From IMG/VR virus record IMGVR_UViG_2541047854_000008: a stretch of 13,548 nucleotides of DNA. The stretch is one strand, 5' to 3'. The notes beneath the pieces were generated by a model that was not told where the DNA came from, made no database searches, and saw nothing but the letters and a program-made list of their open reading frames with translations. Both the position numbers and the translations under genes were made by a program. This DNA comes from a virus. Lineage: Duplodnaviria > Heunggongvirae > Uroviricota > Caudoviricetes. Below are positions 1-13,548 of the stretch, in pieces. Each line of letters opens with the position of its first letter. Position 1 is the stretch's first letter.

Positions 1-234
1 CACTGGCACGTGGAGAATAAGCTGCACTGGCGTCTGGACGTGGTAATGAATGAAGACGACTGCAAAATAAGAAGAGGAAATGCAGCAGAATTATTTTCAG
101 GGATACGGCACATCGCTATTAATATTTTGACTAATGATAAGGTATTCAAGGCAGGGTTAAGACGTAAGATGCAAAAAGCAGCCATGGAGAGAAACTATCT
201 GGCGTCAGTCCTTGCGGGGAACGGGCTTTCGTAA
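1..234 (+). mobile_element. 3'-terminal part of an IS transposase gene (ISAs1/H-repeat-like DDE transposase); the rest of the gene and IS lie upstream of the window
   Basis: Frame 1 is open from nt 1 ([43 protein letters not shown]...) to TAA at 232-234. The HWxxENxLHWxLDVxxxED..R..G motif is the conserved C-terminal signature of this transposase class (recalled, not searched). The IS terminal inverted repeat cannot be placed without the other end. Confidence 0.55.
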
Positions 235-567
235 TCTTGCCCTGCCTGCTCACCTCCTCCAGGCACTTCCACTACATGATGACCTGCTCGGTGCCACCGC
301 TCCTTTTCACTATGACGTTAACCTCCCCGTCCCAGGACACCATGCTTTTGTCTACATTCTACGCAAACGGCAACTTTTATAACCAGTGTAAAAATAACGT
401 GCCGCAATAGTCATACCTATTAATGGTAAAAAGCTGTCACAATTCATAAAAAACCTTAATATACGCCACCCTAAACATAACCAGCGTTAATGTAAGGTTT
501 TTGTGTGGACTGGCTTCTTGATGTTTTTGCTACCTGGCTCTACGGCTTAAAAGTAATCGCGATAACG

Positions 568-1173
568 TTAGCGGTCATCATGTTCATCAGCGGGCTGGAC
601 GATTTTTTTATTGATGTCGTCTACTGGGTACGCCGCATTAAACGCAAGTTGAGTGTTTATCGCCGCTATCAGTTCATCCAGCGCGGCTGCTTTGTTCATG
701 GCTTTGATGATATCCCGTTTCAGGAAATCAACATGTCGGTTTTCCAGTTCCGGAAAACGCCGCTGCACCGACAGGGGGATCCCGTCGAGAATACTGGCAA
801 TTTCACCTGCGATCCGCGACAGCACGAAAGTACAGAATGCGGTTTCCACCACTTCAGCGGAGTCTCTGGCATTTTTCAGCTCCTGTGCGTCGGCCTGCGC
901 ACGCGTAAGTCGATGGCGTTCGTACTCAATAGTCCCTGGCTGGAGATCTGTCTCGCTGGCCTGCCGCAGTTCTTCAACTTCCCGGCGCAGCTTTTCGTTC
1001 TCAATTTCAGCATCCCTTTCGGCATACCATCTTATAACGGCGGCAGAGTCATAAAGCACCTCATTACCCTTGCCACCGCCTCGCAGAACGGGCATTCCCT
1101 GTTCCTGCCAGTTCTGAATGGTACGGATACTCGCACCGAAAATGTCAGCCAGCTGCTTTTTGTTGACTTCCAT
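568..1173 (-). CDS. nohD: Terminase small subunit Nu1 homolog (DNA-packaging protein), C-terminally altered
   Basis: The 201-aa translation matches lambda Nu1 essentially residue for residue through aa 169 (MEVNKKQLADIFGASIRTIQNWQEQGMPVLRGGGKGNEVLYDSAAV...KAMNKAAALDELI), then continues with 32 unrelated residues to a TAA. ATG at 1171-1173 is preceded by GGAATGAACA, as in lambda. No large-subunit (A) gene follows. Confidence 0.9.
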   Translation of the reverse strand: MEVNKKQLADIFGASIRTIQNWQEQGMPVLRGGGKGNEVLYDSAAVIRWYAERDAEIENEKLRREVEELRQASETDLQPGTIEYERHRLTRAQADAQELKNARDSAEVVETAFCTFVLSRIAGEIASILDGIPLSVQRRFPELENRHVDFLKRDIIKAMNKAAALDELIAAINTQLAFNAAYPVDDINKKIVQPADEHDDR

Positions 1174-1400
1174 TGTTCATTCCACGGCCAAAAACAGAGA
1201 AAGGAAACGACAGAGGCCCAAAAGCTCGTTTTCAGCACCTGTCGTTTCCTTTCTTTTCAGGGGGTATTTTAAATAAAAACATTAAGTTACGACGAAGAAG
1301 AACGGAAATGCCTTAAACCGGAAAATTTTCATAAATAGCGAAAACCCGCGAGGTCGCCGCCCCGTAACCTGTCGGATCGCCGGAAAGGACCCGCAAAATG
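1174..1400 (-). other. cos site: cosN 12-nt cohesive-end sequence at 1351..1362 (AGGTCGCCGCCC on + strand, GGGCGGCGACCT on - strand), with cosB between cosN and the nohD start and cosQ-side sequence at 1363..~1400
   Basis: The - strand of 1260..1362 reads as the lambda left end (GGGCGGCGACCTCGCGGGTTTTCGCTATTTATGAAAATTTTCCGG...), and the - strand of 1363..1395 matches the lambda right end (...GGGTCCTTTCCGG[C]GATCCGACAGGTTACG). The cosN-to-Nu1 start spacing of about 178 bp is as in lambda. Confidence 0.8.
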
Positions 1401-1561
1401 ATAATAATTATCATCTACATGTCACAACGTGCATCTACGCCATCAAACCACGTCAAATAATCAATTATGACGCAGGTATCGTATTAATTGATCTGCATCA
1501 ACTTAACGTAAAAACAACTTCAGACAATACAAATCAGCGACACTGAATACGGGGCAACCTC

Positions 1562-1756
1562 ATGTCAACTAAGAACAGAACCCGCAGAACAACAACCCGC
1601 AACATCCGCTTTCCTAACCAAATGATTGAACAAATTAACATCGCTCTTGAGCAAAAAGGGTCTGGGAATTTCTCAGCCTGGGTCATTGAAGCCTGCCGTC
1701 GGAGACTAACGTCAGAAAAGAGAGCATATACATCAATCCAGAGTGATGATGAATAA
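1562..1756 (+). CDS. ylcI: DUF3950-family small prophage protein (YlcI-like, 64 aa), lambda right-end ORF
   Basis: ATG at 1562 to TAA at 1754-1756. The translation MSTKNRTRRTTTRNIRFPNQMIEQINIALEQKGSGNFSAWVIEACRRRLTSEKRAYTSI... matches the K-12 DLP12 YlcI sequence and the lambda right-end sequence as I remember them. Confidence 0.8.
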   Translation: MSTKNRTRRTTTRNIRFPNQMIEQINIALEQKGSGNFSAWVIEACRRRLTSEKRAYTSIQSDDE

Positions 1757-2115
1757 ACATCCCGGTTTCTTCCACCATCGCACCGGAAAAGCGACTATGA
1801 GGGTAACCCTGCGTCTGTCAGCACAGTAAAACCCGGTGTGCATCGTTTTTGATTATTCCCGCACACTCACGCAGAAGGAATTCCCCGTCGGGCTACGGTC
1901 ATGGTTAATGCGGGAATACGGCGACGATACAGCGCAGCTAAAAGGGTAATGGACAGAAAGAGCGGTTTATTTCATTCCACAGGATTCTGAGTGCCCCCCT
2001 CCTCCAATAGGCTGAGCATCCACCTATATAGTTTTAATTTTCATCAATCCATTTAACTATCGTTTAATTGTTGTCACATAGGATTCTGCCGTTTTTAACA
2101 ATGCAGGATAATAAG

Positions 2116-2409
2116 ATGAAAAAAATGTTGTTTTCTGCCGCTCTGGCAATGCTTATTACAGGATGTGCTCAACAGACGTTTACTGTTGGAAACAAACCGA
2201 CAGCAGTAACACCAAAGGAAACCATCACCCATCACTTCTTCGTTTCGGGAATTGGACAGGAGAAAACTGTTGATGCAGCCAAAATTTGTGGCGGCGCAGA
2301 AAATGTTGTTAAAACAGAAACCCAGCAAACATTCGTAAATGGATTGCTCGGTTTTATTACTTTAGGCATTTATACTCCGCTGGAAGCGCGTGTGTATTGC
2401 TCACAATAA
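2116..2409 (+). CDS. borD: Bor lipoprotein (serum-resistance lipoprotein homolog), 97 aa with lipobox LITGC
   Basis: The ORF track starts at a TTG (2068). The Bor-like protein begins at ATG 2116 (MKKMLFSAALAMLITGCAQQTFTV...), preceded by AGGA 8 nt upstream, with a signal peptide and lipobox cysteine. Near-identical to lambda Bor and convergent with Rz as in lambda. Confidence 0.9.
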   Translation: MKKMLFSAALAMLITGCAQQTFTVGNKPTAVTPKETITHHFFVSGIGQEKTVDAAKICGGAENVVKTETQQTFVNGLLGFITLGIYTPLEARVYCSQ

Positions 2410-2440
2410 TTGCATGAGTTGCCCATCGATATGGGCAGCT

Positions 2441-2902
2441 CTATCTGCACTGCTCATTAATATACTTCTGGGTTCCTTCCAGTTGTTTTTGCATAGTGAT
2501 CAGCCTCTCTCTGAGGGTGAAATAATCCCGTTCAGCGGTGTCTGCCAGTCGGGGGGAGGCTGCATTATCCACGCCGGAGGCGGTGGTGGCTTCACGCACT
2601 GACTGACAGACTGCTTTGATGTGCAACCGACGACGACCAGCGGCAACATCATCACGCAGAGCATCATTTTCAGCTTTCGCATTAGCTAACTCCTTCGTGT
2701 ATTTTTCATCCAGTGCAGCAACATCACGCTGGCGCATCTGCATGTCAGTAATTGCCGCGTTCGCCAGCTTCAGTTCTCTGGCATTTTTGTCGCGCTGGGC
2801 TTTGTAGGTAATGGCGTTATCACGGTAATGATTAACAGCCCATGACAGGCAGACGATGATGCAGATAACCAGAGCGGAGATAATCGCGGTTACTCTGTTC
2901 AT
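2441..2902 (-). CDS. rzpD: Rz inner-membrane spanin (i-spanin), 153 aa
   Basis: The translation from ATG 2900-2902 ([64 protein letters not shown]...) is near-identical to lambda Rz. The ATG overlaps the rrrD TGA (ATGA). The track's GTG start at 2914 is judged to be an upstream extension. Confidence 0.9.
2500..2682 (-). CDS. rzoD: Rz1 outer-membrane lipoprotein spanin (o-spanin), 60 aa, embedded in Rz in the +1 frame
   Basis: The translation [60 protein letters not shown] has a lipobox (VVGC) and proline-rich stretch and is near-identical to lambda Rz1. It lies wholly inside the Rz ORF. Confidence 0.85.
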
Positions 2903-3396
2903 TGCTGACCCCACAAACAGATTTCACGCTCAATCTCACGACGAGTCATGAGACCTTTCCATTGCTTACCGCCAGCATATGTCCAGCGACGTAGCTGATC
3001 ACATGCGCCTTTGATATCGCCCTGGTTTATTTTGCGAAGAAGCGTCGATGTTCTGAAATTGCCAGCGCCCACGTTGTAAACGAACGAGTAAAGAGCGCCG
3101 CGCGTTGTTTCCGGTATATCAACTTTTATGTACGGGTTAATTTGTCTGGCGACCGTGGCAAGGTCTTTATTCAGGAGGGCTTTGCATTCTGCTTTGGTAT
3201 ACGTTTTACCGAGCATGATGTCTTTTCCTGTATGCCCGTGACATACAGTCCATACACCAACAATATCTTTGTATGGTATGTAGCTGACACCTTCCAGACC
3301 ATCGTTACCACTTGGGCCAGTGATTAACACTGATGCTATAGCAATTGCTCCGCCACCAATAGCAGCAGCAACGGCTTTTCGTAATGATGGAGGCAT
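2899..3396 (-). CDS. rrrD: Phage lysozyme (endolysin, T4-lysozyme-like GH24) with N-terminal signal-anchor-release (SAR) segment, 165 aa
   Basis: The translation [75 protein letters not shown]... has a Gly/Ala-rich weakly hydrophobic N-terminus (SAR) followed by a lysozyme catalytic region, matching K-12 RrrD and phage-21 R-type endolysin. RBS GAGGTG upstream; the ATG overlaps the essD stop. Confidence 0.9.
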
Positions 3397-3611
3397 TATT
3401 CACCTCTCGCAGCCTTGCGCTTATCTTCTTTAATCTTGAAATAAAGGTTTGTCAGGTACGTCAGCAGGCCAAATACCAGGCTACCCAGCACACCTATTGC
3501 TGCCCACTGTGAGGGCGTGACTTTATCGAGCAGCTGTAAAAACCAGTAACCGGCACTACCTGCTGAGGTGCCATAGGCGACACCCGTTGTTAACTTATCC
3601 ATGGATTTCAT
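3396..3611 (-). CDS. essD: Phage 21 S-type pinholin with dual-start motif MKSM, 71 aa
   Basis: ATG at 3609-3611 is preceded by GAGGTGGGG. The protein [71 protein letters not shown] has two transmembrane segments and a charged C-terminus. Met1 and Met4 fit the holin/antiholin dual start. The track's TTG at 3656 is judged an extension. Confidence 0.85.
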
Positions 3612-3656
3612 AACCCCACCTCGCAGACAAAGCGGGTGTAAATTGAGGGAATACAA

Positions 3657-4199
3657 CGTATCGCAAAAAAGCAGAAACGTAACAGACTCGGAGTCAGTGA
3701 ATAACTCAGGTATTGAGTTATCAGCTAATATCGAGACTCAAAAAATGGAAAAACCAGCTCGACGGCGGGTTTAAGCTGTGTGACGAAGTAACCACTCTTA
3801 ACAGCATAACCAATTTTTTACGTACGTAAACCACTGAATGATATTTATGAGAATGCTACCGAGTGTTCAAAACACCACCACAAATATATAAGAAAACCTC
3901 AACAAATAACCAATAAATAATTTCCGGCGTTATTTTTAGTTGATTTAAATTAAACCACCGAATTATAGAACCCCCATAAATAACAGCCATTAATATAAAT
4001 TAGCTAATAGGTTTATTTTTGTTCAAATAAGAGCCATAAATAGGTTTCGATAGAAAAAGTTCAGATAAAAATAGAGATCTACTTCACAAATTAAATGAGA
4101 AACTAAAACTTACATCTTGAAATAATCACATTGATTAGATGAATATTTATCGCGCAGTGACATCATTTTTTAATAATAGTTCAAAAAAAAGGGCTCACG
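3657..4199 (+). promoter_or_regulatory. Long AT-rich upstream region of the porin gene, presumed nmpC promoter/regulatory region; exact promoter not assigned
   Basis: About 540 bp without a credible ORF, visibly AT-rich, directly upstream of the nmpC ATG. Contains the short direct repeat CCATAAATA at 3974-3982 and 4034-4042. Porin genes typically have extended upstream regulatory regions. Confidence 0.3.
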
Positions 4200-5282
4200 A
4201 TGAAAAAATTAACAGTGGCAATTTCTGCTGTAGCTGCATCAGTACTGATGGCGATGTCTGCTCAGGCAGCTGAAATTTATAATAAAGACAGTAACAAGCT
4301 GGATCTGTACGGGAAAGTTAATGCCAAGCACTACTTTTCCTCTAACGATGCAGATGATGGTGATACTACTTATGCCCGTCTTGGCTTCAAAGGTGAAACC
4401 CAAATCAACGATCAACTGACTGGTTTCGGTCAGTGGGAATATGAATTCAAAGGCAACCGCGCTGAATCTCAAGGTTCCTCCAAAGACAAAACCCGTCTTG
4501 CATTTGCAGGCCTGAAATTCGGTGACTACGGCTCAATCGATTACGGCCGTAACTACGGTGTAGCATACGACATCGGTGCGTGGACTGACGTTCTGCCAGA
4601 ATTCGGTGGCGATACCTGGACCCAAACAGATGTGTTCATGACTGGTCGCACCACTGGTGTTGCAACCTATCGTAACAACGACTTCTTTGGTCTGGTCGAT
4701 GGCCTGAACTTTGCTGCTCAGTATCAGGGTAAAAATGACCGCACTGACGTAACTGAAGCCAATGGTGATGGTTTCGGTTTCTCCACTACTTATGAGTATG
4801 AAGGATTCGGCGTGGGTGCAACCTATGCTAAATCAGATCGCACTGACGGTCAGGTCGCCTATGGTAAGAGCAAATTCAATGCCTCCGGCAAAAATGCGGA
4901 AGTATGGGCTGCAGGCCTGAAATATGATGCGAACAATATCTATCTGGCTACCACATATTCTGAAACTCAGAATATGACCGTTTTTGGTAATAACCATATT
5001 GCAAACAAAGCACAAAACTTTGAAGCAGTAGCACAATATCAGTTTGACTTCGGTCTGCGACCATCTGTTGCTTACCTTCAGTCAAAAGGTAAAGACCTTG
5101 GTGTTCATGGTGACCGAGACTTAGTCAAGTATGTCGATGTCGGTGCTACTTACTACTTTAATAAAAACATGTCCACTTTTGTTGATTACAAAATCAACTT
5201 AATTGACGATAGTAAGTTTACCAAAACAGCTGGTATTGATACCGACGACATCGTCGCTGTAGGTCTGGTGTATCAGTTCTAA
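4200..5282 (+). CDS. nmpC: Outer-membrane general porin of the OmpC/OmpF/PhoE family (NmpC/OmpD-like), 360 aa, intact
   Basis: Signal peptide [23 protein letters not shown] followed by AEIYNKD..., and it ends in the porin C-terminal motif ...VGLVYQF. Full length with no interruption. Oriented opposite to the flanking late genes. Confidence 0.9.
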
Positions 5283-5290
5283 TCTGATTA

Positions 5291-5330
5291 CGAAAAAGAT
5301 ATGTTGCGGGAGGCTTTGCCTCCCCAACAT
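5291..5330 (-). terminator. Stem-loop with T-tract on the - strand: candidate tR'-like intrinsic terminator; may also terminate convergent nmpC
   Basis: Imperfect inverted repeat ATGTTGCGGGAGGC / GCCTCCCCAACAT at 5301-5330. On the - strand the stem is followed by ATCTTTTT. It sits about 140-180 nt downstream of the Q stop and 10-20 nt after the nmpC stop. Confidence 0.4.
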
Positions 5331-5471
5331 ATAAGTGGCTCCCTCAAGCCACTTCCTTTAGAAGCACAACCTTGCTTCTAACTATATAAACCTTCTGTTA
5401 TATATTACCCTTTATTTTTGGGGGCGTCTCAACGCCCCATTTTTAATAATTTTTAGTAAACAATTGGCATA
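5331..5471 (-). promoter_or_regulatory. Region expected to carry the Q-dependent late promoter (pR') and Q-utilisation site; individual elements not resolved
   Basis: In lambdoid phages pR'/qut lie immediately downstream of Q (established knowledge). The region holds several short hairpins (AGAAGCA/TGCTTCT, AGTGGCT/AGCCACT, GGGGCG/CGCCCC) and no ORF. No confident -35/-10 assignment could be made by eye. Confidence 0.3.
5420..5445 (+). terminator. GC-rich hairpin GGGGCG-tctcaa-CGCCCC followed by ATTTTT on the + strand; terminator-like, function ambiguous
   Basis: Perfect 6-bp GC stem with a 6-nt loop and a T-run on the + strand. On the - strand it is followed by an A-run, so it is only terminator-like in the + direction (possible distal nmpC terminator) or is part of the late-promoter leader structure. 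Confidence 0.3.
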
Positions 5472-5855
5472 TTAATTAGAGTTATTAACAACGATATCCA
5501 TCTCTAACCGGATATCTAATGCCATTAACATCCCTTCAATTATGCCCTCAGCCTTCTGTAACCTTTTCCCGATATAACCATCAGAGCAGCAATGCTTACC
5601 TGCCAGTGACATGAATGTCATACCGACTACATAATAATCTACTAATAAATCGTGCAAATCGCTGTTGTTCTTTTTCAGACGGGCCATGCACCCGCAAATG
5701 ATCATCGCGTCATCGTCACAACATTGCGGGCGAGATTTTACTTTTGAAGGAATTAATCCCTTAAAACCGGCGGCAATGGACGACCAGGTCACATCTTCAT
5801 GATTATTAGCCGCCCACGCTCCCCAACGCTCAAGAACCATCTGAATATCACGCAT
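5472..5855 (-). CDS. quuD: Late-gene antiterminator Q homolog, 127 aa
   Basis: ATG at 5853-5855 with GGAG 9 nt upstream. The translation [60 protein letters not shown]... matches K-12 QuuD as recalled. The track's TTG at 5870 is judged an extension. Confidence 0.9.
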
Positions 5856-5940
5856 CAACTTACTCCACAAAAATCAGACCAGAACGCCAATTACAAGCAA
5901 AAATCAATAAAACAGTATTAGTTGATTGTTATCTCTGACT

Positions 5941-6081
5941 TCATACTCCTGCTCCTGTCAGGGTTTTGGCGTAATTCCTCAGTATTCGGTAATCGGTCAA
6001 AACAGAACCGGGGAAACGATATAAGCGCAGGCGCATCCAGCGGTGGCGAAGACGTTCTGCCATATAAGACTCAAACATCAT
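5941..6081 (-). CDS. ylcG: Small prophage protein YlcG-like, 46 aa; missing from the ORF track (under 60 aa)
   Basis: Hand translation of the - strand gives [46 protein letters not shown], with ATG at 6079-6081 overlapping the rusA TGA (ATGA) and stop at 5941-5943. Position between rusA and Q matches ylcG in DLP12. Confidence 0.7.
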
Positions 6082-6440
6082 TCATCTCCCAGTTCAGTGA
6101 TGGTCAGTTCCAGCTTCCCACCTTTGGTAACAGGCATCTTCACAACGCGGTAATCAACGACCAGCTCATCATCCAGCCAGAAACCTGCTTTAGTGAGTGC
6201 GTCAAAAGCGGCTTTTTGCAGATTATCCAGGTCACGGCGACGGCGATCCGGCATGTGGCACTCAATGCGGATTTTCACAGGCATAGCCAGGCCGATATCC
6301 AGCATTGCGTTTTTAATGATTCGGGCGACGTTATCGCGGTATGCCTGCCCCTCTGCGCTGACGTGCGTGCGCCCGCGATTATGGCGGTAATAGCGATTAT
6401 TGCTCGGAGGCCAGGGTAATGTGATGCTGTAGGTATTCAC
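6078..6440 (-). CDS. rusA: Holliday-junction resolvase RusA (crossover junction endodeoxyribonuclease), 120 aa
   Basis: The translation [91 protein letters not shown]... is recognisably RusA. Its start overlaps the ybcO stop. Confidence 0.95.
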
Positions 6441-6727
6441 GCCTTAATAACCCCCTCTTTCAGCCAGATAACCTGTGTTCTCGCCATACCTTCCAGCGCG
6501 CATTCTTTTGCATATGCAGCATCGACAAAATGTGTGCGGCGGTCGATTTCGTCGTGGCAGGCAGAACATGCAATGGTGGCAATCAGGTCTGGCGGTTTGG
6601 TACCGGTGCCGCACAATCCAGTCAGCCGGATATGTGCCAGTACAGACGTTTCAGGGTTGCCATTACATACGCCAGGGATTCTTACCTGGCATTCCCGACC
6701 ACGCGCTGCTTTTCTCAAATCAGCCAT
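6437..6727 (-). CDS. ybcO: DUF1364-family nin-region protein (YbcO-like), 96 aa, cysteine-rich putative nuclease/zinc-binding protein
   Basis: ATG at 6725-6727 preceded by GGAGG. The translation [66 protein letters not shown]... matches K-12 YbcO as recalled. The track's TTG at 6766 is an extension. Confidence 0.85.
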
Positions 6728-6890
6728 GATTCCTCCTTGCTGCCAGTCGCAACCATTTTTTATCAACCAGGCTGGCGGTATATCCGAGCAGTGTTGGTAT
6801 TTCGGATGGTTTCAGCTCAGGCTTACGCTTACGACGATTTGGTACTCTGTAGATGTGTCCGTTCATGACACGAATAAGCGGTGTAGCCAT
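6720..6890 (-). CDS. ninE: NinE-like small protein, 56 aa; missing from the ORF track (under 60 aa)
   Basis: Hand translation gives [56 protein letters not shown], recognisably lambda NinE. The ATG at 6888-6890 overlaps the ybcN TAA by 1 nt, and the stop at 6720-6722 overlaps the ybcO start region by 8 nt. Confidence 0.8.
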   Translation of the reverse strand: MATPLIRVMNGHIYRVPNRRKRKPELKPSEIPTLLGYTASLVDKKWLRLAARRNHG

Positions 6891-7345
6891 TACGCCTCCT
6901 GCTTGTCGCGCAGCAGCTGGAACTCGCAGCTCTGCGGAATAGTCAGGTGGCAGCCAATATTCATCGCCCAGGCTTCAACCTTACACAGGAAGACATACAT
7001 CTCTCCGGTATCAAGATTGGAGGTATGACGTAATGACTGAATGGTGGTGATTTCACCGGTTACGACATCAACCAGTTCTTTGGTTTCATAACCGAGATAA
7101 GTGTGTTTGAGAGCATCTTTTACCCAAGCTGGAGTGGCGAACGTTTTACCCCTGCTGATGAGGTATTCACTGATTTCGCTGTACCACATGTGGCTGAGTG
7201 CATTCTGGGAAAGACTGCGTCTCTCGCGCCACGGTTTAAGCACCATGCGAAAGCATTTGCCGTCCTCCAGATAAGGCTGGATCTGCCGACCGATAGCGGT
7301 GAAGTTACCGCGATGCAATTTGATACCATCTTGTGGGAGGTTCAC
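6890..7345 (-). CDS. ybcN: NinB/Orf-family recombination protein (YbcN-like), 151 aa, GTG start
   Basis: The translation [62 protein letters not shown]... matches K-12 YbcN as recalled. GTG at 7343-7345 is preceded by GGAGGTGAAGC. Confidence 0.85.
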
Positions 7346-7443
7346 GCTTCACCTCCGCAGAGATCAAACGCTGGATGCAAAATATCGCAGGTGCATTTCT
7401 GCATCTGTGAATGGAGAAGAGAGGTTGGATTGTATGTGCGCAT
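7342..7443 (-). CDS. Possible small ORF (33 aa) translationally coupled to ybcN; may be the K-12 ylcH equivalent. Speculative
   Basis: ATG at 7441-7443 to TGA at 7342-7344, giving [33 protein letters not shown]. The stop overlaps the ybcN GTG (GTGA). No recognisable RBS or homolog; the call rests on position only. Confidence 0.25.
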
Positions 7444-7465
7444 AAACGTCCCCGTTTAGCGCAGA

Positions 7466-7496
7466 AGTCACCGGAGGAGTTCAAACTCCGGTGACT
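7466..7496 (-). terminator. Perfect 11-bp stem-loop (AGTCACCGGAG - 9-nt loop - CTCCGGTGACT) downstream of the HNH-motif gene; possible terminator or regulatory hairpin
   Basis: Inverted repeat read directly from the sequence. It lies between the stop of the 260-aa gene (7538) and the nin-gene block. There is no clear U-tract on the - strand and TTAATTAT follows on the + strand, so terminator function is uncertain. Confidence 0.3.
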
Positions 7497-7537
7497 TAAT
7501 TATGGCAAGTTGATTGTTGAAAATCAATTTAGTGGAT

Positions 7538-8320
7538 TTAGGCGCAATACAAAGGATCATTAGCAGCTCTAATACCGCCCTGAATCGCAAGCCCTGTATG
7601 GCAATTTGACATTGAGCATGATTGCCATCTGTGCAAGGGACCTCCATTAATCGAAACTTCCAGCAGATCTTTATCTCCTTTCATCCTGACCCCTTCATAC
7701 AACATATCAAGACGCTCAACAATCAATCCTGTTGGAGGTTCCATTTTTAGAACGAGGGCAAACTCTCCTGGCCCACGTCGTATTGTTATACGCGGGCCGG
7801 TACACTCCACATCCCAATTGTCTGATTTAGCTTTCCATTCATTTTCATCTATCAGTAAAGTCTCCTTACCAATAGAATTACAGAAAATTCCTGATAAAAG
7901 CATCGGTCCATGTGGTATGGGTGAAGGTTTCACAGAAAGAATGGGTTGTTCGTTGACTACAATCAAATTTTGACAGTTATGAAACGTCACTCCTGCAAAT
8001 TTTACTGTTATAGGCTCATTATGAAAATCAAACATTTCATTTGCAAAACCAGCCTGTAAGCACTTGGGATTTCTGTCAGCTATTTCCACTGTCTGTGCTG
8101 AAAGTCTACCACGAGCTCTTTTTTGATTGCATTGGGAGCAAAGAAGTGTCATTCCATTCGGATCATGTATTTTGGCATCAACGAAGTCAGGTTTAAAATG
8201 CTCATAATCATAAAATCCAAATCCACAAATTACACAGCCAAAGCCGCACCTTTGCCTTATCTGACGTTTTATTGTCTCAGGTATTCTTCTTGAGAGCCCG
8301 TGTTTATTAATATTGTCCAT
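7538..8320 (-). CDS. Hypothetical 260-aa protein with an N-terminal zinc-finger HNH (beta-beta-alpha-Me) nuclease motif and an uncharacterised ~190-aa C-terminal domain
   Basis: ATG at 8318-8320 with an in-frame stop 5 codons upstream and only a weak SD. Residues 25-65 read RCGFGCVICGFGFYDYEHFKPDFVDAKIHDPNGMTLLCSQCNQ, i.e. C-x3-C-x2-C ... EH ... N ... C-x2-C-N, the spacing typical of HNH nucleases. The C-terminal region is not recognised. The gene is AT-rich relative to the lambda-like core. Confidence 0.6.
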   Translation of the reverse strand: MDNINKHGLSRRIPETIKRQIRQRCGFGCVICGFGFYDYEHFKPDFVDAKIHDPNGMTLLCSQCNQKRARGRLSAQTVEIADRNPKCLQAGFANEMFDFHNEPITVKFAGVTFHNCQNLIVVNEQPILSVKPSPIPHGPMLLSGIFCNSIGKETLLIDENEWKAKSDNWDVECTGPRITIRRGPGEFALVLKMEPPTGLIVERLDMLYEGVRMKGDKDLLEVSINGGPLHRWQSCSMSNCHTGLAIQGGIRAANDPLYCA

Positions 8321-8450
8321 ATGGTTAGTACGCTATAAGTTTGTTTCTATAATTTTACCACAATAGATAAGTTTGTATCAGAAATCGCTATATGGAGTGA
8401 GCGGAATATTTATATTATTCATGCAATTGCTCTCCCGTACGCAGCCCGCA

Positions 8451-8476
8451 CTTCCGTCATCGCAGAATGACGGAAG
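8451..8476 (-). promoter_or_regulatory. Perfect 10-bp inverted repeat (CTTCCGTCAT-cgcaga-ATGACGGAAG) in the intergenic region between the 107-aa and 260-aa genes; candidate operator or attenuator hairpin
   Basis: Read directly from the sequence. It lies 19 nt past the stop of the 107-aa ORF and upstream of an AT-rich stretch that contains an extended -10-like TGGTAAAAT (- strand, about 8350-8360). No U-tract follows on either strand. Confidence 0.3.
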
Positions 8477-8494
8477 CCTTACTAACTAGCGCCT

Positions 8495-8818
8495 TTATTG
8501 AAACAGATTCTGAGGTAAATGCGGCAATACTTGACTCCACTTATCATCCTGCCACGGCTGAAGTTTTACATGTGCCGTTTCTCGGGCGAGGATTGCTCGC
8601 GCTCTGTTGAGTCTCTGGGGATATTCTTGCTCGATGGAAGTGAAGTGACCAGCCTCACCATGCTCCGCATCCTGAAGAAGATGAGTAACGTTCTGGTAGG
8701 CAATTAACATCACATTCCCTGCTCGCCATAACCAGGCGAGTGTGCAAAGTTCGTTATCAGTGAATTGTTTTGTGATTGGGAATTGTTGAACTGCTAGAAC
8801 GGGAACGCCAGCATCCAT
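8495..8818 (-). CDS. Hypothetical protein, 107 aa, no recognised family; upstream partner of the HNH-motif gene
   Basis: ATG at 8816-8818 with an in-frame TAG 3 codons upstream and AGGGA 8 nt upstream. Translation MDAGVPVLAVQQFPITKQFTDNELCTLAWLWRAGNVMLIAYQNVTHLLQDAEHGEAGHFTSIEQEYPQRLNRARAILARETAHVKLQPWQDDKWSQVLPHLPQNLFQ. Coding status rests on ORF length and position only. Confidence 0.45.
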   Translation of the reverse strand: MDAGVPVLAVQQFPITKQFTDNELCTLAWLWRAGNVMLIAYQNVTHLLQDAEHGEAGHFTSIEQEYPQRLNRARAILARETAHVKLQPWQDDKWSQVLPHLPQNLFQ

Positions 8819-8929
8819 TGGCAGTCCCTATAGTAAAACCATAGCTCAGGACGCTTCGTTCAGGATAGATACTTTTATTGTACTTACCTAACTTTCTTAC
8901 TATAGCACGGTTGGAAAAGTGATTATTAC

Positions 8930-10456
8930 TCAAAAATAAACCTCACCATCAACCATATATTTGAGAGTACTTATCGCCTGCTGGGCGGATATTGTTTTCA
9001 TTAAAGGATAGTGTTTAAAAACAATGCCATTCATAAAATAGATATCACAGGTTTTATTATCTGTATTGATTATGATTTTTTCGAATGTTTTATAGGCAAG
9101 TGTACGACATAGCTCTCGCCCATTTTTACTGGTTAAGTCAATAGCATGAAAATCACCAAGTGAACTCACCGCTTTACTCTTCAAAGTTTTTAATGATACC
9201 GAAGCCCTTCGTAATTCTTTATCTAATACTCTGATTTTTTCTGCTATAGCGGTAACTTCAGGCGCAACAGATAATGCAGCAATTAAATTATTAATTTTCA
9301 TCTGGAGCTCAATAATTTTCAACTCTAAAGTTTCATTAGCATCTTTCTTGTTTTCAACTGGTTGGATTTTACTACAATTAAAAAGCAACTCATTAATGAT
9401 ATTATAATCAACCAAATCTCTCTTTATTGATGGCCTGTCACATCGATGCAGTCTTCTCATCGGACAAACATAATAGCCATGCAAACTTCCAGATACCGCA
9501 TGAACAATCATGGTATTACCACAAGCCTCGCACTTCATAACTGTTCGAAGTAGATTTATCAACATAGGATTTTTGCTACTATTGCTAATACCAAAAGGTG
9601 CCAACCGAATTTCCTGCACAGCGTAAAACAAATCATCTGATATGACTCTGGGATAATAGCCAGCGATTTCACTTATTCCTTTACCTCTTGCACGATATGA
9701 AGGTACGCATATACCTATCAGAGCTTTATTCGCTAATAATTTTTCAATTACAGAAGGCCCCCATGCACTTTCTTTGCCTGAGAAATTTTTTACAGCATGA
9801 TCATTTAAATACTTGGCTATTGCATTCAATGATCGCCTTTCCATCCTGAGTTTAAAAATTAGCTCAATCGTTTTCACCCTGTCGGGGTCTGGAATAAAAG
9901 CTGTTCTTTTGTCATCCAATGAGAGCCATCTCGGACAAGACGCCGTCATAATCGTGCCTGACTCCAGTGCATCCTGCCGTTTTTTCTTCCATGATAATTT
10001 AACCCGACTTGACTTTATCTCGCTTTCTTCATTTGCCCTTTGTGCTATAAGTATGGCTTTTATTAATGAATATGGATCATTCAAAGAGTCAATATTATAG
10101 ACTGTATTATCGCAAAGAGTTATAACATCAATACCGTGATTCAAAATCAATTTCAGACGCTCAATCGCTTCACCGACTTTTTCTCTTGAAAGTCTGTCCA
10201 AACTTTCAACTAACAATGTAGTTCCTGGCAATATATAACCATGCTCTATAGCATCTAAAAATTCCGAAAAAGCTCCTGATTGTGCATGCTTTCCTTTGAA
10301 TGCACTTAATCCTAAATCTTCATATGTTATGGTATCAAGATAATAATCACTATTTACCTTTAACCATTCAGCAATAAGTCTTCTCTGTCGGTTCAATGAG
10401 TCGCCAGACATCTGACCTGGTGATGAAAATCGCATATATGCTATGGCTTTTTTCAT
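8930..10456 (-). CDS. ybcK: Large serine recombinase (resolvase/invertase-type N-terminal catalytic domain plus recombinase and zinc-ribbon domains), 508 aa
   Basis: ATG at 10454-10456. The N-terminus MKKAIAYMRFSSPGQMSGDSLNRQRRLIAEW... carries the serine-recombinase catalytic motif (YxRxSS). The C-terminal part has a Cys cluster (CEACGN...CPMRRLHRC) and a coiled-coil-like segment. Matches K-12 YbcK in length and sequence as recalled. AT-rich. Confidence 0.9.
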   Translation of the reverse strand: MKKAIAYMRFSSPGQMSGDSLNRQRRLIAEWLKVNSDYYLDTITYEDLGLSAFKGKHAQSGAFSEFLDAIEHGYILPGTTLLVESLDRLSREKVGEAIERLKLILNHGIDVITLCDNTVYNIDSLNDPYSLIKAILIAQRANEESEIKSSRVKLSWKKKRQDALESGTIMTASCPRWLSLDDKRTAFIPDPDRVKTIELIFKLRMERRSLNAIAKYLNDHAVKNFSGKESAWGPSVIEKLLANKALIGICVPSYRARGKGISEIAGYYPRVISDDLFYAVQEIRLAPFGISNSSKNPMLINLLRTVMKCEACGNTMIVHAVSGSLHGYYVCPMRRLHRCDRPSIKRDLVDYNIINELLFNCSKIQPVENKKDANETLELKIIELQMKINNLIAALSVAPEVTAIAEKIRVLDKELRRASVSLKTLKSKAVSSLGDFHAIDLTSKNGRELCRTLAYKTFEKIIINTDNKTCDIYFMNGIVFKHYPLMKTISAQQAISTLKYMVDGEVYF

Positions 10457-10638
10457 GGTGACACCTGCTAACGTATGCTTTTATAAACCTTAGTGGTGGG
10501 ATATAACTTTTGTTTAATTTTTATTTAAAAAGACAATTAAGGTCACATTATCTTGAATATACAACAATAATCGTATTGCAATTTTCTCACGCCATAATCT
10601 TGAAAGCACAAAAGAATACATAAAAAATAAAGACATTA

Positions 10639-10680
10639 ACAAAAAGCATAAAACGAGGCTCATATAAATATAAGAGCCTC
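10639..10680 (-). terminator. Intrinsic terminator downstream of emrE
   Basis: Hairpin GAGGCTC...GAGCCTC (10654-10679) is followed on the - strand by GTTTTATGCTTTTT, about 32 nt after the emrE stop. Confidence 0.5.
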
Positions 10681-10711
10681 CATATTTTAGTCGTTTAAAA
10701 ACAAATTATTT

Positions 10712-11044
10712 TTAATGTGGTGTGCTTCGTGACAATAAATTAATAACCAACACACCGGCACAAATCAACATCATGCCTATAATGGCTGGCAGGTCCAGCC
10801 GTTGGCCGAAAAATCCCCATGACAGTAAGCTAATCAGGACAATACCGACTCCTGACCAGATAGCATAAGCAATCCCTGTAGGAATATAAGCCAGCGTCTG
10901 AGCTAATAACCAGAATGATGCACAATAACAAATAATTGTACCAACAGATGGCCATAACCGTGTAAAACCTTCTGAAAACTTCATTAAGGTTGTACCAATG
11001 ACCTCTGCAAGTATTGCACCACCAAGATAAATATAAGGGTTCAT
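10712..11044 (-). CDS. emrE: Small multidrug resistance (SMR) efflux transporter EmrE, 110 aa
   Basis: ATG at 11042-11044. The translation MNPYIYLGGAILAEVIGTTLMKFSEGFTRLWPSVGTIICYCASFWLLAQTLAYIPTGIAYAIWSGVGIVLISLLSWGFFGQRLDLPAIIGMMLICAGVL..NLLSRSTPH is recognisably EmrE (four TM helices, conserved Glu14). The track's TTG at 11098 is an extension. Confidence 0.95.
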   Translation of the reverse strand: MNPYIYLGGAILAEVIGTTLMKFSEGFTRLWPSVGTIICYCASFWLLAQTLAYIPTGIAYAIWSGVGIVLISLLSWGFFGQRLDLPAIIGMMLICAGVLVINLLSRSTPH

Positions 11045-11060
11045 AGCATATTCTTTCCTG

Positions 11061-11093
11061 TTCAAACTGGAGAGAATTGTACTACAGTTTGAA
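11061..11093 (-). promoter_or_regulatory. 9-bp perfect inverted repeat (TTCAAACTG - 15 nt - CAGTTTGAA) immediately upstream of emrE; possible operator or transcript-processing hairpin
   Basis: Read directly from the sequence, between the ren stop (11112) and the emrE start (11044). Function unknown. Confidence 0.2.
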
Positions 11094-11111
11094 ATCAACT
11101 CACCTGTTTCA

Positions 11112-11414
11112 TCATTGTGTACCCATTGATGTTCTTTTATATACCCTCAATACGCGTTTCATCGCGGCACTCTGGCGACACTCCTTAAAAATCAGATTCG
11201 TGCTCACCTTTCCTTCCCGTTCTTCTCTGGTAGCGAACCGGTAATACACCGTTCGCCAGACCTTACCATCAACGACCAGGATTCCTGCCCGCGCCATTTT
11301 AGCCGCAGCCTGATTTATGCTGGTTACGGTTGCGCCTGTTACCGCGGCAACGTCCTGTGCACAGAAGCTCTTATGCGTCCCCAGGTAATGAATAATTGCC
11401 TCTTTGCCCGTCAT
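11112..11414 (-). CDS. renD: Ren protein homolog (lambda Ren, protects against Rex exclusion), 100 aa
   Basis: The translation MTGKEAIIHYLGTHKSFCAQDVAAVTGATVTSINQAAAKMARAGILVVDGKVWRTVYYRFATREEREGKVSTNLIFKECRQSAAMKRVL... is recognisably lambda Ren. The ATG overlaps the P stop (ATGA), as in lambda. Confidence 0.85.
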   Translation of the reverse strand: MTGKEAIIHYLGTHKSFCAQDVAAVTGATVTSINQAAAKMARAGILVVDGKVWRTVYYRFATREEREGKVSTNLIFKECRQSAAMKRVLRVYKRTSMGTQ

Positions 11415-12112
11415 ACACTTGCTCCTTTCAGTCCGAACTTAGCTTTAATTTCTGCGATCTTCGCCAGAGCCTGTGCACGATTTAGAGGTCTACCGCCCAT
11501 AACAGGAAGTTGTTTTACTGGTTCAGGTATCGTCTCACCACGGTTAATTCGCGCTGTCATACAGGTCAGTTCATCGGCAGCCTTGCGCCGTAATTCCGCG
11601 TCAGTCAGCGCATTGGCCCGCATGTTCTGGTACAAGTTGGTAACCAACCAGTAATGCGCGTTCGATTTCCACGGATAAGACTCTGCATCCGGATACAGGC
11701 CACGCTTCCGGCAATACTCGTAAACCATATCAACCAGCTCGCTGACGTTTGGCAGCCCGGCGTTAACAGATGCTTCTTCCCGGCACCAGGCGACAAACTG
11801 CCCGGGTGATGGCAGGAATGGTCGATTCTGCCGACGGGCTACGCGCATTCCAGCGTTAACCTGTTCCATTGTGGTGATCCCGTTTTCCCGGAAAGCCAGA
11901 ACCCACTGGCGGCGGATTTCGTTCAGTTCATTCTGGTCACGGTTAGCCAGGCTCGCCGGGAAAGTTGCCAGTAACTGGCTGAACACACCGTTGATGATCT
12001 GCGCTACCTGCTGTACCTGTGGCTTTTCGTCGTACTGTTCCGGCATGTTGTTGGCGATCCGGCGCATCTGCTCACAGTCAAAGTTAACCATCTGTGCGGC
12101 GATGTTTTTCAT
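11411..12112 (-). CDS. P: Replication protein P (DnaB helicase loader) homolog, 233 aa, apparently full length
   Basis: The translation MKNIAAQMVNFDCEQMRRIANNMPEQYDEKPQVQQVAQIINGVFSQLLATFPASLANRDQNELNEIRRQWVLAFRENGITTMEQVNAGMRVARRQNRPFLPSPGQFVAWCREEASV... is near-identical to lambda P as recalled. The start ATG overlaps the stop of the upstream O-frame remnant (ATGA), as in lambda. Confidence 0.9.
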   Translation of the reverse strand: MKNIAAQMVNFDCEQMRRIANNMPEQYDEKPQVQQVAQIINGVFSQLLATFPASLANRDQNELNEIRRQWVLAFRENGITTMEQVNAGMRVARRQNRPFLPSPGQFVAWCREEASVNAGLPNVSELVDMVYEYCRKRGLYPDAESYPWKSNAHYWLVTNLYQNMRANALTDAELRRKAADELTCMTARINRGETIPEPVKQLPVMGGRPLNRAQALAKIAEIKAKFGLKGASV

Positions 12113-12288
12113 AGCTCCACCCCGTAAATCCAGTCAGTGTTCGTCAGGTCGAGTTTTGGTTTGCCGGCTATCACGCCAGCCTGTTGCTTGTTTCGGTTGA
12201 TTTCGAGCTGGGTCCACTTGTCGCGGAGTTTGGCCGGACTTAGCACGTTACAGGCAACACGTAAAGATCCAACCAAGCCAAAATCTCC
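12109..12288 (-). pseudogene. O: 3'-terminal remnant of replication initiator gene O (only the last several tens of codons); no start codon, so the ori-containing part of O is absent
   Basis: The - strand frame ending in TGA at 12109-12111 encodes ...AGVIAGKPKLDLTNTDWIYGVEL, which matches my recollection of the lambda O C-terminus, and has the lambda-like O/P ATGA overlap. The frame is closed by an in-frame stop at 12289-12291 and there is no N-terminal part. The exact junction with int-upstream sequence is not determined. Confidence 0.45.
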
Positions 12289-12384
12289 TTACCTCACAAC
12301 ACGGCAAGCCTGCATTGCGGCGCTTCAGTCTCCGCTGCATACTGTCCAGGTGAGCGCGGGTGATGGCATAACAGAGGAAAGAAA

Positions 12385-13548
12385 ATGTCACTCTTCCGCA
12401 GAAATGAAATATGGTATGCCTCGTATTCGCTCCCGGGCGGGAAACGAATTAAGGAATCTCTTGGCACAAAGGACAAGCGGCAAGCTCAGGAGTTGCACGA
12501 CAAGCGAAAAGCAGAACTCTGGCGAGTAGAAAAGCTAGGGGATTTACCTGATGTCACTTTTGAAGAGGCCTGCCTAAGATGGCTTGAGGAAAAAGCTGAT
12601 AAAAAATCTCTCGATTCAGATAAAAGCCGGATTGAGTTCTGGCTTGAACATTTTGAGGGTATAAGGCTTAAAGATATCTCGGAGGCAAAGATTTACTCTG
12701 CTGTAAGCAGAATGCATAACAGAAAGACGAAAGAAATATGGAAACAGAAAGTTCAGGCCGCCATCAGGAAAGGTAAAGAACCGCCTGTTTATGAACCAAA
12801 GCCAGTATCAACTCAGACAAAGGCAAAGCATCTTGCCATGATAAAGGCCATTCTCCGTGCTGCAGAACGCGACTGGAAGTGGCTGGAAAAAGCGCCTGTC
12901 ATCAAGATACCAGCGGTCAGAAACAAGCGAGTCAGATGGCTGGAAAAGGAGGAAGCAAAACGCCTTATTGATGAGTGCCCCGAACCACTGAAATCTGTCG
13001 TCAAGTTTGCGCTGGCAACTGGTCTGAGAAAGTCGAACATCATAAATCTGGAATGGCAACAAATCGACATGCAGCGACGAGTTGCCTGGGTGAATCCAGA
13101 AGAGAGCAAATCAAACCGCGCCATTGGTGTGGCGCTGAACGATACCGCCTGTAAAGTGTTGCGTGATCAAATAGGCAAGCATCACAAATGGGTGTTTGTA
13201 CATACCAAGGCGGCTAAGCGAGCAGATGGAACATCAACGCCTGCGGTCAGGAAGATGCGCATCGACAGCAAGACATCATGGCTATCAGCTTGTCGTCGTG
13301 CAGGAATTGAAGATTTCCGTTTCCATGACCTCAGACACACCTGGGCAAGCTGGCTGATTCAGTCAGGCGTCCCATTATCAGTGCTTCAGGAAATGGGCGG
13401 ATGGGAGTCCATAGAAATGGTTCGTAGGTATGCTCACCTTGCGCCTAATCATTTGACAGAGCATGCGAGGAAAATAGACGACATTTTTGGTGATAATGTC
13501 CCAAATATGTCCCACTCTGGAATTATGGAGGATATAAAGAAGGCGTAA
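12385..13548 (+). CDS. intD: Tyrosine site-specific integrase (phage integrase family), 387 aa
   Basis: ATG at 12385 preceded by GAGGAAAG. The C-terminal catalytic region has the R...HxxR...Y signature ([15 protein letters not shown]...VRRYAHL). Length and sequence match K-12 IntD as recalled. The stop codon is the last 3 nt of the window, so the attachment site or tRNA is outside the window. Confidence 0.9.

Follow-up and report, generated by a model that had tools for sequence, protein, structure and literature searches.

The window, by which we mean the whole 13,548-nt stretch of DNA analysed, ends at the stop codon of an integrase gene; in identical contigs, tRNA-Arg(TCT) argU lies 15 nt further on. 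The encoded tyrosine integrase, IntD (12385..13548, + strand, 387 aa), is intact, as an earlier note on this DNA had stated. It matches Pfam Phage_integrase at full length (5.5e-47, profile positions 1-171 of 172), and its translation contains the conserved Arg, His-x-x-Arg and Tyr motifs (TGLR212, HDLRH314-318, RRYAH347-351). The gene is 100% identical to int of sequence L007.

Replication genes of lambda type occupy the minus strand. Replication protein P, the DnaB helicase loader (11411..12112, - strand, 233 aa), is covered by Pfam Phage_lambda_P over profile positions 1-162 of 162 (7.8e-62), and 227 of its 233 residues are identical to lambda P (228 of 234 aligned positions including the stop codon); the same sequence is WP_000788813.1 in L001 and L003. 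Ren (11112..11414, - strand, 100 aa) shares 83 of 92 residues with lambda Ren and is annotated as 'protein ren' (WP_000145915.1) in the identical L003 sequence. The earlier description of P and ren as intact is borne out. Downstream of ren lies a block typical of DLP12 (8930..11044, - strand). It comprises emrE (10712-11044; Pfam Multi_Drug_Res), ylcJ (10514-10663) and an intact large serine recombinase gene, ybcK (8930-10456; Pfam Resolvase, Recombinase and Zn_ribbon_recom), all named from the annotation of the identical L003 sequence.

Adjoining P is the 3′ remnant of a lambda-type O gene (12109..12251, - strand), comprising the last 46 codons and TGA. The encoded peptide (NVLSPAKL...DWIYGVEL) is identical to lambda O residues 254-299 at 43 of 46 positions and to PhiR70_1 O at 45 of 46. 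Its stop codon overlaps the ATG of P as ATGA, as in lambda, in agreement with the earlier observation that a few tens of O codons remain and overlap the P start, and the P-interacting C-terminal tail is kept. Phage DNA homology to O-P-ren ends at window position 12254/12251. The earlier assignment of 12113..12288 to O therefore holds as far as 12251, whereas 12252-12288 is xis sequence.

The sequence to the right of this boundary had been described merely as the upstream region of int. Instead, 12252-12384 belongs to the body of a xis gene of P22 type that has lost its 5′ end (12252..12529, + strand, codons 32-123 of 123), with the junction in codon 31 and a 3′ end that overlaps the start of int by 145 nt. 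The parental open reading frame (L003 25178-25549) encodes 123 aa with a Pfam HTH_17 domain at residues 6-36. It aligns collinearly and at full length with P22-type Xis proteins: it shares 79% of its residues with the intact 116-aa HTH protein of a thrW prophage and 76% with P22 Xis, and is 100% identical to its counterpart in phage ev243. The xis frame of the window has no Pfam match, residues 1-30 (HTH) being deleted. While a functional excisionase is indeed absent, as proposed, the gene itself is not missing: it has been decapitated and its 3′ three quarters remain. These observations also provide a correction to annotation, in that the intact P22-like xis of DLP12-type prophages whose int region is complete is labelled 'incomplete' by PGAP.

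The two remnants meet at 12249..12251, a single TAC where the parental arrangement has two, one on each side of a 1,017-bp segment, so that 1,020 bp were lost in all; these are also the outermost three bases of the O remnant (TAC/GTA). Window positions 1-12251 correspond to L003 12001-24251 and positions 12249-13548 to L003 25269-26568, both at 100% identity. The window is 100% identical to Escherichia coli B-JRPT-4119 (NZ_CP106756.1), the nearest complete genome, except for this one 1,020-bp deletion with TAC at both breakpoints. B-JRPT-4119 keeps an intact 123-aa Xis frame, and the loss of the HTH-bearing codons is thus due to the 1,020-bp deletion. A crossover at a pseudo-attachment site for IntD was considered and rejected: the sequence GACTTAG, which matches the anticodon region of argU, lies 10 nt from the junction and is wholly retained.

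The joining of integrase-side sequence to the 3′ end of O, as first described, is real and is not an accident of assembly. An exact-protein look-up placed the 55-aa open reading frame that spans the junction on nine public draft contigs, and the one in GCA_027495145.1 matches the window at 100% identity along 4,440 nt that include the junction. The allele is therefore present in independent assemblies and was already in public databases. When 160 nt around the junction served as the query, none of 5,426 complete RefSeq E. coli genomes gave a match that spanned it, and the junction 31-mer had no match in species-representative genomes or metagenome contigs; the allele is accordingly rare. An assembly or sequencing artefact, such as a collapsed or chimeric contig, could also produce a junction carried by draft assemblies and by no complete genome, but this explanation is highly improbable. 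The identical frame on nine contigs is recorded under several distinct NCBI protein accessions, the breakpoints contain no collapse-prone repeats beyond the 3-nt TAC, and both flanks occur only once and match the parent at 100% identity.

Fusion of the remnants has created two chimeric open reading frames. The longer (12137..12529, + strand, 130 aa, GTG start) places 37 residues read from the antisense of O in frame with Xis residues 31-123; it has no Pfam match, no gene was called there in the draft assembly, and it is probably non-functional. The shorter (12109..12276, - strand, 55 aa, TTG start) consists of nine residues from the xis antisense followed by the 46 O residues. On the nine contigs its product carries the annotation 'replication protein O'. 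Pfam Phage_rep_O does not match it, while the parental 281-aa fragment is still recognized. An AAGGAG motif stands 8 nt before the TTG (12285-12290) and the stop codon overlaps the start of P, so this frame, with its good Shine-Dalgarno sequence, could couple translation into P, given a read-through transcript. In a crude consensus scan of 10600-12700 for promoters and terminators, counts were at chance level, nothing was found near the junction and no promoter-like site faced P. Judged from the sequence, P is in all likelihood either silent or transcribed weakly by read-through.

These features raise the question of whether P and ren, with emrE, form a domesticated module under selection, rewired by the deletion such that P would be translated through coupling to the 55-aa frame and its ribosome-binding site. 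The intactness of both genes, the 97% identity of P to lambda P, the arrangement of the AAGGAG motif and overlapping stop codon, and the strong host effects of expressed P (PMC3640518) are all consistent with this proposal. However, P is truncated at its 5′ end in K-12 and in at least five other lineages (L013-L017, L022), and ren or emrE is also disrupted in some; a survey of the P and O side across genomes was confounded, since these genomes contain further lambdoid prophages. Since P is truncated in sister lineages, its intactness here is no evidence of retention, and nothing suggests that selection keeps it. Moreover, no promoter-like site faces P, the toxicity of constitutive P (PMC3640518) argues against expression, and the allele is rare. 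We therefore consider domestication improbable and the intact P incidental.

In keeping with the earlier note, the window contains no replication origin, functional initiator or immunity region. The part of O equivalent to lambda ori is situated upstream of codon 254, and the four lambda iterons had no match in the window at up to four mismatches, except for an isolated three-mismatch hit at 5756. Similarly, no cI, cro, N, cII/YdaT, exo, bet, gam, kil, TraR or DUF4222 was found in the 13,548 nt. Lytic growth functions are thus missing (immunity, the O N-terminus, ori and the recombination genes in the window), and in the parent genome NZ_CP106756.1 just the terminase small-subunit gene is left before an ISAs1 element. 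The backbone ren-emrE-ylcJ-ybcK ... ybcN-ninE-ybcO-rusA-ylcG-quuD-porin-essD-rrrD-rzpD is present (by RefSeq annotation of the identical sequence in NZ_CP106756.1, with Pfam for emrE and ybcK), and intD adjoins tRNA-Arg(UCU) argU in the 100%-identical contig L004 as well as in L001 and L003. Taken together, these results support, with a probability that we put at roughly 85%, a reading of the window as the early part of a defective lambdoid prophage of DLP12 type, integrated at argU, that has undergone a rare, strain-specific second deletion.

We infer the order of events as follows. The starting point would be a fuller prophage such as that of E. coli strain 64, with int, xis, DUF4222, TraR, exo, bet, gam, kil, cI, cro, ydaT, O, P and ren. 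A first deletion of about 5.47 kb, mapped against strain 64, would have run from just upstream of DUF4222 to O codon 71, giving the state of strains B-JRPT-4119 and NCCP12480, in which the immunity region, the red genes and the 5′ end of O are gone. The second deletion, of 1,020 bp between the two TAC triplets, would then have joined O codon 253/254 to xis codon 31, removing the remainder of O with its iteron/ori region, along with DUF4222 and the start of xis, which encodes the HTH. Most of the loss noted earlier (immunity, red genes and the O 5′ end) went in the first deletion of about 5.5 kb that is common to other strains. At the junction O and xis point away from each other, so that each gene has lost its 5′ end, together with whatever promoters lay in the interval. 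The deletion endpoints missed int, P and ren, and for that reason alone these three genes remain intact. The outcome is a prophage from which origin, initiator, repressor/operator region and working excisionase have all disappeared. With these functions missing and, in the nearest complete genome, attR and the morphogenesis genes missing too, the element would be an inert chromosomal passenger.

The earlier note had concluded that the element is locked in the chromosome and unable to replicate as a phage. While the inability to replicate stands, attributing the lock to the absence of xis is too simple: K-12 DLP12, which has a xis remnant only, still excises at <1e-5 (PMC3105296). In B-JRPT-4119, where the far end of the prophage could be read in a genome that lacks the junction, the prophage is cut off by ISAs1, and no match of at least 12 nt to the argU/attL segment was found within 26 kb upstream of int. 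An attR missing as in that genome, together with the ISAs1 truncation, would better explain why the element is locked in.

The process is ordinary prophage decay and reveals no new system. DLP12 is well known, defective and widespread, occurring in 74% of strains (PMC6379469, PMC3105296), and loss of the xis-to-O interval is a known DLP12 state. As a textbook defective prophage of about three quarters of E. coli strains, it gives the finding as such little importance; what the analysis documents is stepwise decay with an identifiable parent.

Deletion junctions were also compared among DLP12 variants. Of 14 junctions at which the microhomology measured 2 nt or more, 10 crossed in TA, where 7.4% would be expected (P = 3.7e-9). 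Four junctions crossed elsewhere: two in AA, one in CCA and one at a single nucleotide (G). The microhomologies were mostly exactly 2-3 nt. Several endpoints were reused with different partners (11845-7 with four, 12080-2 and 18572 with two each), and 17256 and 18629 were each used from both sides; a rough Poisson estimate for such reuse is P ~1e-7. The TA sites also resembled one another more than random TA sites do (p = 0.003). A search against PhiR70_1 for further clean deletions returned only mosaic replacements.

This TA bias and reuse of endpoints suggest that the deletion may not have been a random microhomology event. As an alternative to random microhomology-mediated end joining or slippage, the deletion could have arisen by TA-specific breakage and joining at preferred sites, with the window junction as one product. 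The activity might come from a serine recombinase that crosses over at a 2-nt TA, for example YbcK of the element itself, or from a transposase that targets TA. The excess of TA, the reuse of endpoints and the likeness among sites would all fit such an activity, microhomologies of 2-3 nt would represent a fixed 2-nt core with chance extension, and ybcK is intact in the window. However, the sites show neither a strong common motif nor dyad symmetry, no repeats resembling cognate sites were found near ybcK, no literature was found on YbcK activity, four junctions cross outside TA, and certain junctions may derive from earlier ones by nesting instead of having arisen independently. We regard TA-specific cutting as a tentative proposal, less likely than not. 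A stronger version, in which the TAC junction is the product of an unrecognised, site-preferring deletion process that repeatedly trims DLP12-type prophages, is somewhat more doubtful still; the conserved YbcK, using a 2-nt TA crossover, might catalyse it, as might a TA-targeting transposase or IS-excision machinery. If true, prophage decay at the argU locus would be a semi-programmed process driven by an enzyme instead of a random one. The TA bias and endpoint reuse are the sole potentially interesting lead here, pointing to an enzyme-driven deletion mechanism if the events are independent.

Several other sources of the endpoints were considered and rejected. For resection limited by Chi, no perfect Chi was found in L007 2-19.4 kb, only scattered one-mismatch sites. 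The IS3-family target duplications here lack TA (GTT in FT130), IS1203 duplicates GTA, and the insertion sequences lie off the hot endpoints. Peel-and-paste transposition of the IS608 type at TTAC was set aside, since junctions J5 and J9 lack the required C. By inspection, the Type II restriction sites GTAC, GGTACC and GGTNACC did not fit the endpoints, and no convincing terminal inverted repeats were found inside the deleted segments.

Returning to the preferred reading, a DLP12-type prophage with a second deletion, the closest described system is DLP12 of K-12 (Lindsey et al. 1989, as cited in PMC6379469; also PMC3105296). The two share the argU site, intD beside the tRNA gene, the same ren-emrE-ylcJ-ybcK ... 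rusA-quuD-porin-essD-rrrD-rzpD backbone and a defective state without immunity region, O/ori or complete xis. In K-12, however, a P remnant of 104 codons abuts what is left of exo, which in turn is fused to xis codon 45, IS3 lies within ren, and a 47-bp attR is kept (PMC6379469), whereas the window has intact P and ren, 46 O codons, xis from codon 32 and the ISAs1 truncation seen in B-JRPT-4119. The nearest relatives, B-JRPT-4119 and NCCP12480 (NZ_CP106756.1, NZ_CP068680.1), are 100% identical over all 13.5 kb apart from the deletion and share the same first deletion; in B-JRPT-4119 the ISAs1 boundary is also the same. Unlike the window, both strains keep DUF4222, the intact xis and an O fragment of 281 codons in which the iteron-coding repeats are still present.

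Relative to lambda O-P-ren, protein identity is 93% for the O C-terminus, 97% for P and 90% for ren, with the same ATGA overlap, but O codons 1-253, the ori-lambda iterons, pR, cro and cII are absent and the module is unable to initiate replication. The int-xis end resembles that of P22, SfV and phage ev243 in the overlap of xis with int and in integration at a tRNA gene, differing in the deletion of the first 30 xis codons. Finally, with experimental trapped cryptic lambda prophages (Hayes et al., PMC3640518), the non-excisable lambda fragment is tolerated only after loss of ori/O/P function, and survivors of Replicative Killing have insertions or deletions in O or P. Selection of this kind was rejected as a cause of the window's own deletion. 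In contrast to those survivors, pR, cI and the O N-terminus had already gone in the parent, and the deletion was therefore probably neutral rather than selected.

The window is the early and late-regulatory part of an E. coli prophage that is defective, lambdoid and of the DLP12 type. Over its full length it matches E. coli B-JRPT-4119 (NZ_CP106756.1) at 100% identity, minus 1,020 bp which that strain has kept; its left edge lies inside ISAs1 and its right edge is exactly the intD stop codon. Gene order, read from the RefSeq annotation of the identical B-JRPT-4119 sequence, is ISAs1, terminase small subunit, ylcI, iss, rzpD, rrrD, essD, ompC-like porin, quuD, ylcG, rusA, ybcO, ninE, ybcN, further ORFs, ybcK, ylcJ, emrE, ren, P, O fragment, DUF4222, an 'HTH' gene, intD, tRNA-Arg (argU) and fimZ. 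The ISAs1 transposase gene (window 1-234; B-JRPT-4119 11098-12234) bounds the prophage remnant just past the terminase small-subunit gene. Also present are an iss/bor-type lipoprotein gene (about 2116-2409) and an intact 360-aa OmpC/NmpC-like porin gene (4200-5282), whose K-12 counterpart is presumably interrupted by IS5. The P-ren-emrE-ybcK backbone is shared with the apparently complete phages PhiR70_1 (PV340577.1) and ev243 (LR597639.1); the former carries a lambda-type int/xis and the latter the P22-type xis of DLP12, showing mosaic exchange of the integration module. In E. coli SW071614 (NZ_CM129856.1, 1-1500), unrelated genes encoding a NADAR family protein and a phosphoribosyltransferase-like protein replace the DLP12 DNA left of ren, and the DLP12 side of the join starts at TA.

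The breakpoints in B-JRPT-4119 read GCACGT-TAC-CGGACC and GGCCGCC-TAC-AGGCAAC, and the window carries GCACGT-TAC-AGGCAAC (TAC at 12249-12251), a 1,020-bp deletion with 3-nt microhomology. It removed the DUF4222 gene, the first 30 codons of xis and the 5′ sequence still left in O, which had been truncated before. Before this event the O fragment spanned 281 codons in NCCP12480 and was frameshifted in B-JRPT-4119; the part lost includes the repeated LPESGKK-coding stretch, the site of the iterons. Mapping B-JRPT-4119 onto the more complete prophage of E. coli strain 64 revealed an earlier deletion of ~5.47 kb; it begins at O codon 71, ends a little upstream of DUF4222 and took ydaT, cro, cI, kil, gam, bet, exo, DUF1317, DUF1382, a hypothetical gene and TraR. 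The loss, ~6.5 kb in total relative to strain 64, would have taken two steps. Since pR, cI and the O N-terminus had gone in the first, the second was probably neutral.

The resulting allele is real but rare, and public databases already hold it. No junction-spanning match was found in 5,426 complete RefSeq E. coli genomes, and the junction was likewise missing from species-representative genomes and metagenomes when these were scanned for an exact 31-mer. The exact 55-aa junction-spanning protein occurs, labelled 'replication protein O', in nine contigs of draft NCBI assemblies; one (GCA_027495145.1) agrees with the window at 100% identity along 4,440 nt that include the junction, then runs on into tRNA-Arg(TCT) and fimZ. 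The object is an ordinary, further-deleted DLP12 cryptic prophage allele of low novelty.

The earlier note had called for alignment to lambda O. The minus-strand ORF at 12109-12276 translates as LVGSLRVAC followed by NVLSPAKLRDKWTQLEINRNKQQAGVIAGKPKLDLTNTDWIYGVEL and a stop; its final 46 residues match lambda O residues 254-299 at 43/46 positions and the PhiR70_1 O protein at 45/46. Homology to phage O-P-ren DNA runs from ren through P and ends at 12254/12251. The remnant is O-derived, as the note had proposed, but O sequence stops at 12251 and not at 12288. To its right the same note had seen only the int upstream region, with xis missing. Comparison with the intact 116-aa HTH protein preceding the thrW prophage integrase (79% identity, ungapped over 116 residues), P22 Xis (76%) and the corresponding ev243 ORF (100%) identifies 12252-12384 instead as xis coding sequence. 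The parental ORF encodes 123 aa (B-JRPT-4119 25178-25549; strain 64 18481-18852), begins 227 nt ahead of int, shares 145 nt with the 5′ end of int and matches HTH_17 at residues 6-36. PGAP annotates only its first 22 codons in RefSeq, as an 'incomplete' helix-turn-helix gene or pseudogene, a label suggestive of an annotation artefact; where the int region is complete, DLP12-type prophages carry an intact P22-like xis of 123 aa. The junction falls in codon 31, and window 12252-12529 corresponds to Xis residues 32-123, the HTH-bearing 5′ end having been deleted. No Pfam match was found for the chimeric 130-aa ORF (12137-12529). From these alignments, xis is decapitated rather than absent, and because the parental gene is still intact, it was the 1,020-bp deletion that inactivated it.

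The sole lead worth following from the window lies in the deletion endpoints. Ten DLP12 variants were mapped on strain 64, giving 14 junctions with both partners known. Microhomology contained TA at ten (TA six times, TAC twice, TAA and GTACC once each) and was AA (twice), CCA or G at the remaining four. Where positions in this DNA are paired at random, 7.4% of microhomologies of at least 2 nt contain TA (binomial P = 3.7e-9), although some junctions may be nested descendants and the number of independent events behind this statistic is uncertain. Besides window 12249-12251, endpoints fall at strain 64 positions 11845, 12080, 16359, 16576/16577, 16952, 17256, 18572 and 18613, and pairs at 6706/11322, 5821/13707 and 2704/18365. 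Endpoints are also reused (rough Poisson estimate ~1e-7), including both of those in the window. The TA at 11845, within P, is joined to 16359, 16576, 18572 and a foreign dam fragment; the TA at 12080, the window's O endpoint, is joined to its xis endpoint, 18572, here and to 17256 in a common allele (>97 contigs; 50-aa ORF MIAP/NVLSP...). Position 18572 is joined also to 11845, and both 17256 and 18629 serve as endpoints from either side. Within xis, two direct copies of CAACACG (window 12255-12262 and 12297-12303; strain 64 18578 and 18620) each lie 6-8 nt 3′ of a TA breakpoint that is reused (18572, 18613); the reused 18629 comes after the second copy.

The TA sites are more alike than random TA sites (p = 0.003) and often read K-TA-CC, but their comparison yielded no strong motif. 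Chi-limited resection, IS3-family target sites and an IS608-type TTAC mechanism were tested as causes and were unsupported, as were restriction sites and IntD pseudo-att sites. Scarless deletions could arise by IEE-type microhomology end joining once an IS has been excised (PMC9943667), but this does not obviously imply either TA or fixed endpoints. A serine recombinase with a 2-nt crossover would fit the microhomology length distribution, and the element encodes an intact candidate, the uncharacterised large serine recombinase YbcK (8930-10456; 508 aa; Resolvase, Recombinase and Zn ribbon). Its gene is intact in the window and most variants seen, despite the decay of the prophage; no published function or literature on YbcK activity was found.

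The window was searched by tblastn with the proteins lost in the first deletion and lambda xis, N, cI, cro, cII, cIII and O; matches were limited to the O tail, P, the xis body and int. It contains no ori, no O DNA-binding domain, no pR/cro/cII and no lambda iterons; a lone 18-mer at 5756-5773, with three mismatches to lambda ori iteron 4, is probably due to chance. The element cannot initiate lambda-type replication, and the absence of origin, initiator and immunity region (cI/cro) proposed earlier is upheld. A functional Xis is lacking, as the earlier note had reasoned in calling the element locked. DLP12 of K-12, with a still shorter xis remnant, nevertheless excises at <1e-5 per cell (PMC3105296), so Xis loss alone does not lock the element; excision rises with ybcC and intD overexpression (PMC12607911). 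IntD (387 aa) is intact, as claimed, with a complete Phage_integrase domain and TGLR, HDLRH and RRYAH motifs. In the parent genome, no match of at least 12 nt to the argU/attL segment lies within 26 kb upstream, and the prophage stops at the ISAs1 copy, followed by Rhs/T6SS genes, with all morphogenesis genes gone. Most plausibly, then, it is loss of attR rather than of xis that immobilises the element.

P and ren are likewise intact: P (233 aa) has a full Phage_lambda_P match and 227/233 residues as in lambda, and Ren (100 aa) is identical to lambda Ren at 83/92. P binds DnaB and is toxic when expressed, and 'replicative killing' predicts loss of O/ori in non-excisable prophages (PMC3640518). 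Nothing suggests selection for P retention; P is incidentally intact because the deletion endpoint chanced to fall 143 nt upstream of it. Elsewhere P is reduced to 104 codons joined to an exo remnant (K-12), a shared remnant of 202 codons (LD27-1, SW071614, SCZE5, E600003, AR_0085) or 139 codons (FDN-24), or is interrupted by IS3 (FT130). Its native promoter is gone from the window, and a consensus scan found none facing it. For the chimeric 55-aa ORF, AAGGAG lies 8 nt ahead of the TTG start codon, and a stop/start overlap couples the ORF to P; speculatively, read-through transcripts could be translated into P by this route. The stop codon of O (TGA, 12111-12109) and the start codon of P (ATG, 12112-12110) overlap as ATGA, which is also how O and P are arranged in lambda, as the earlier note had recognised.
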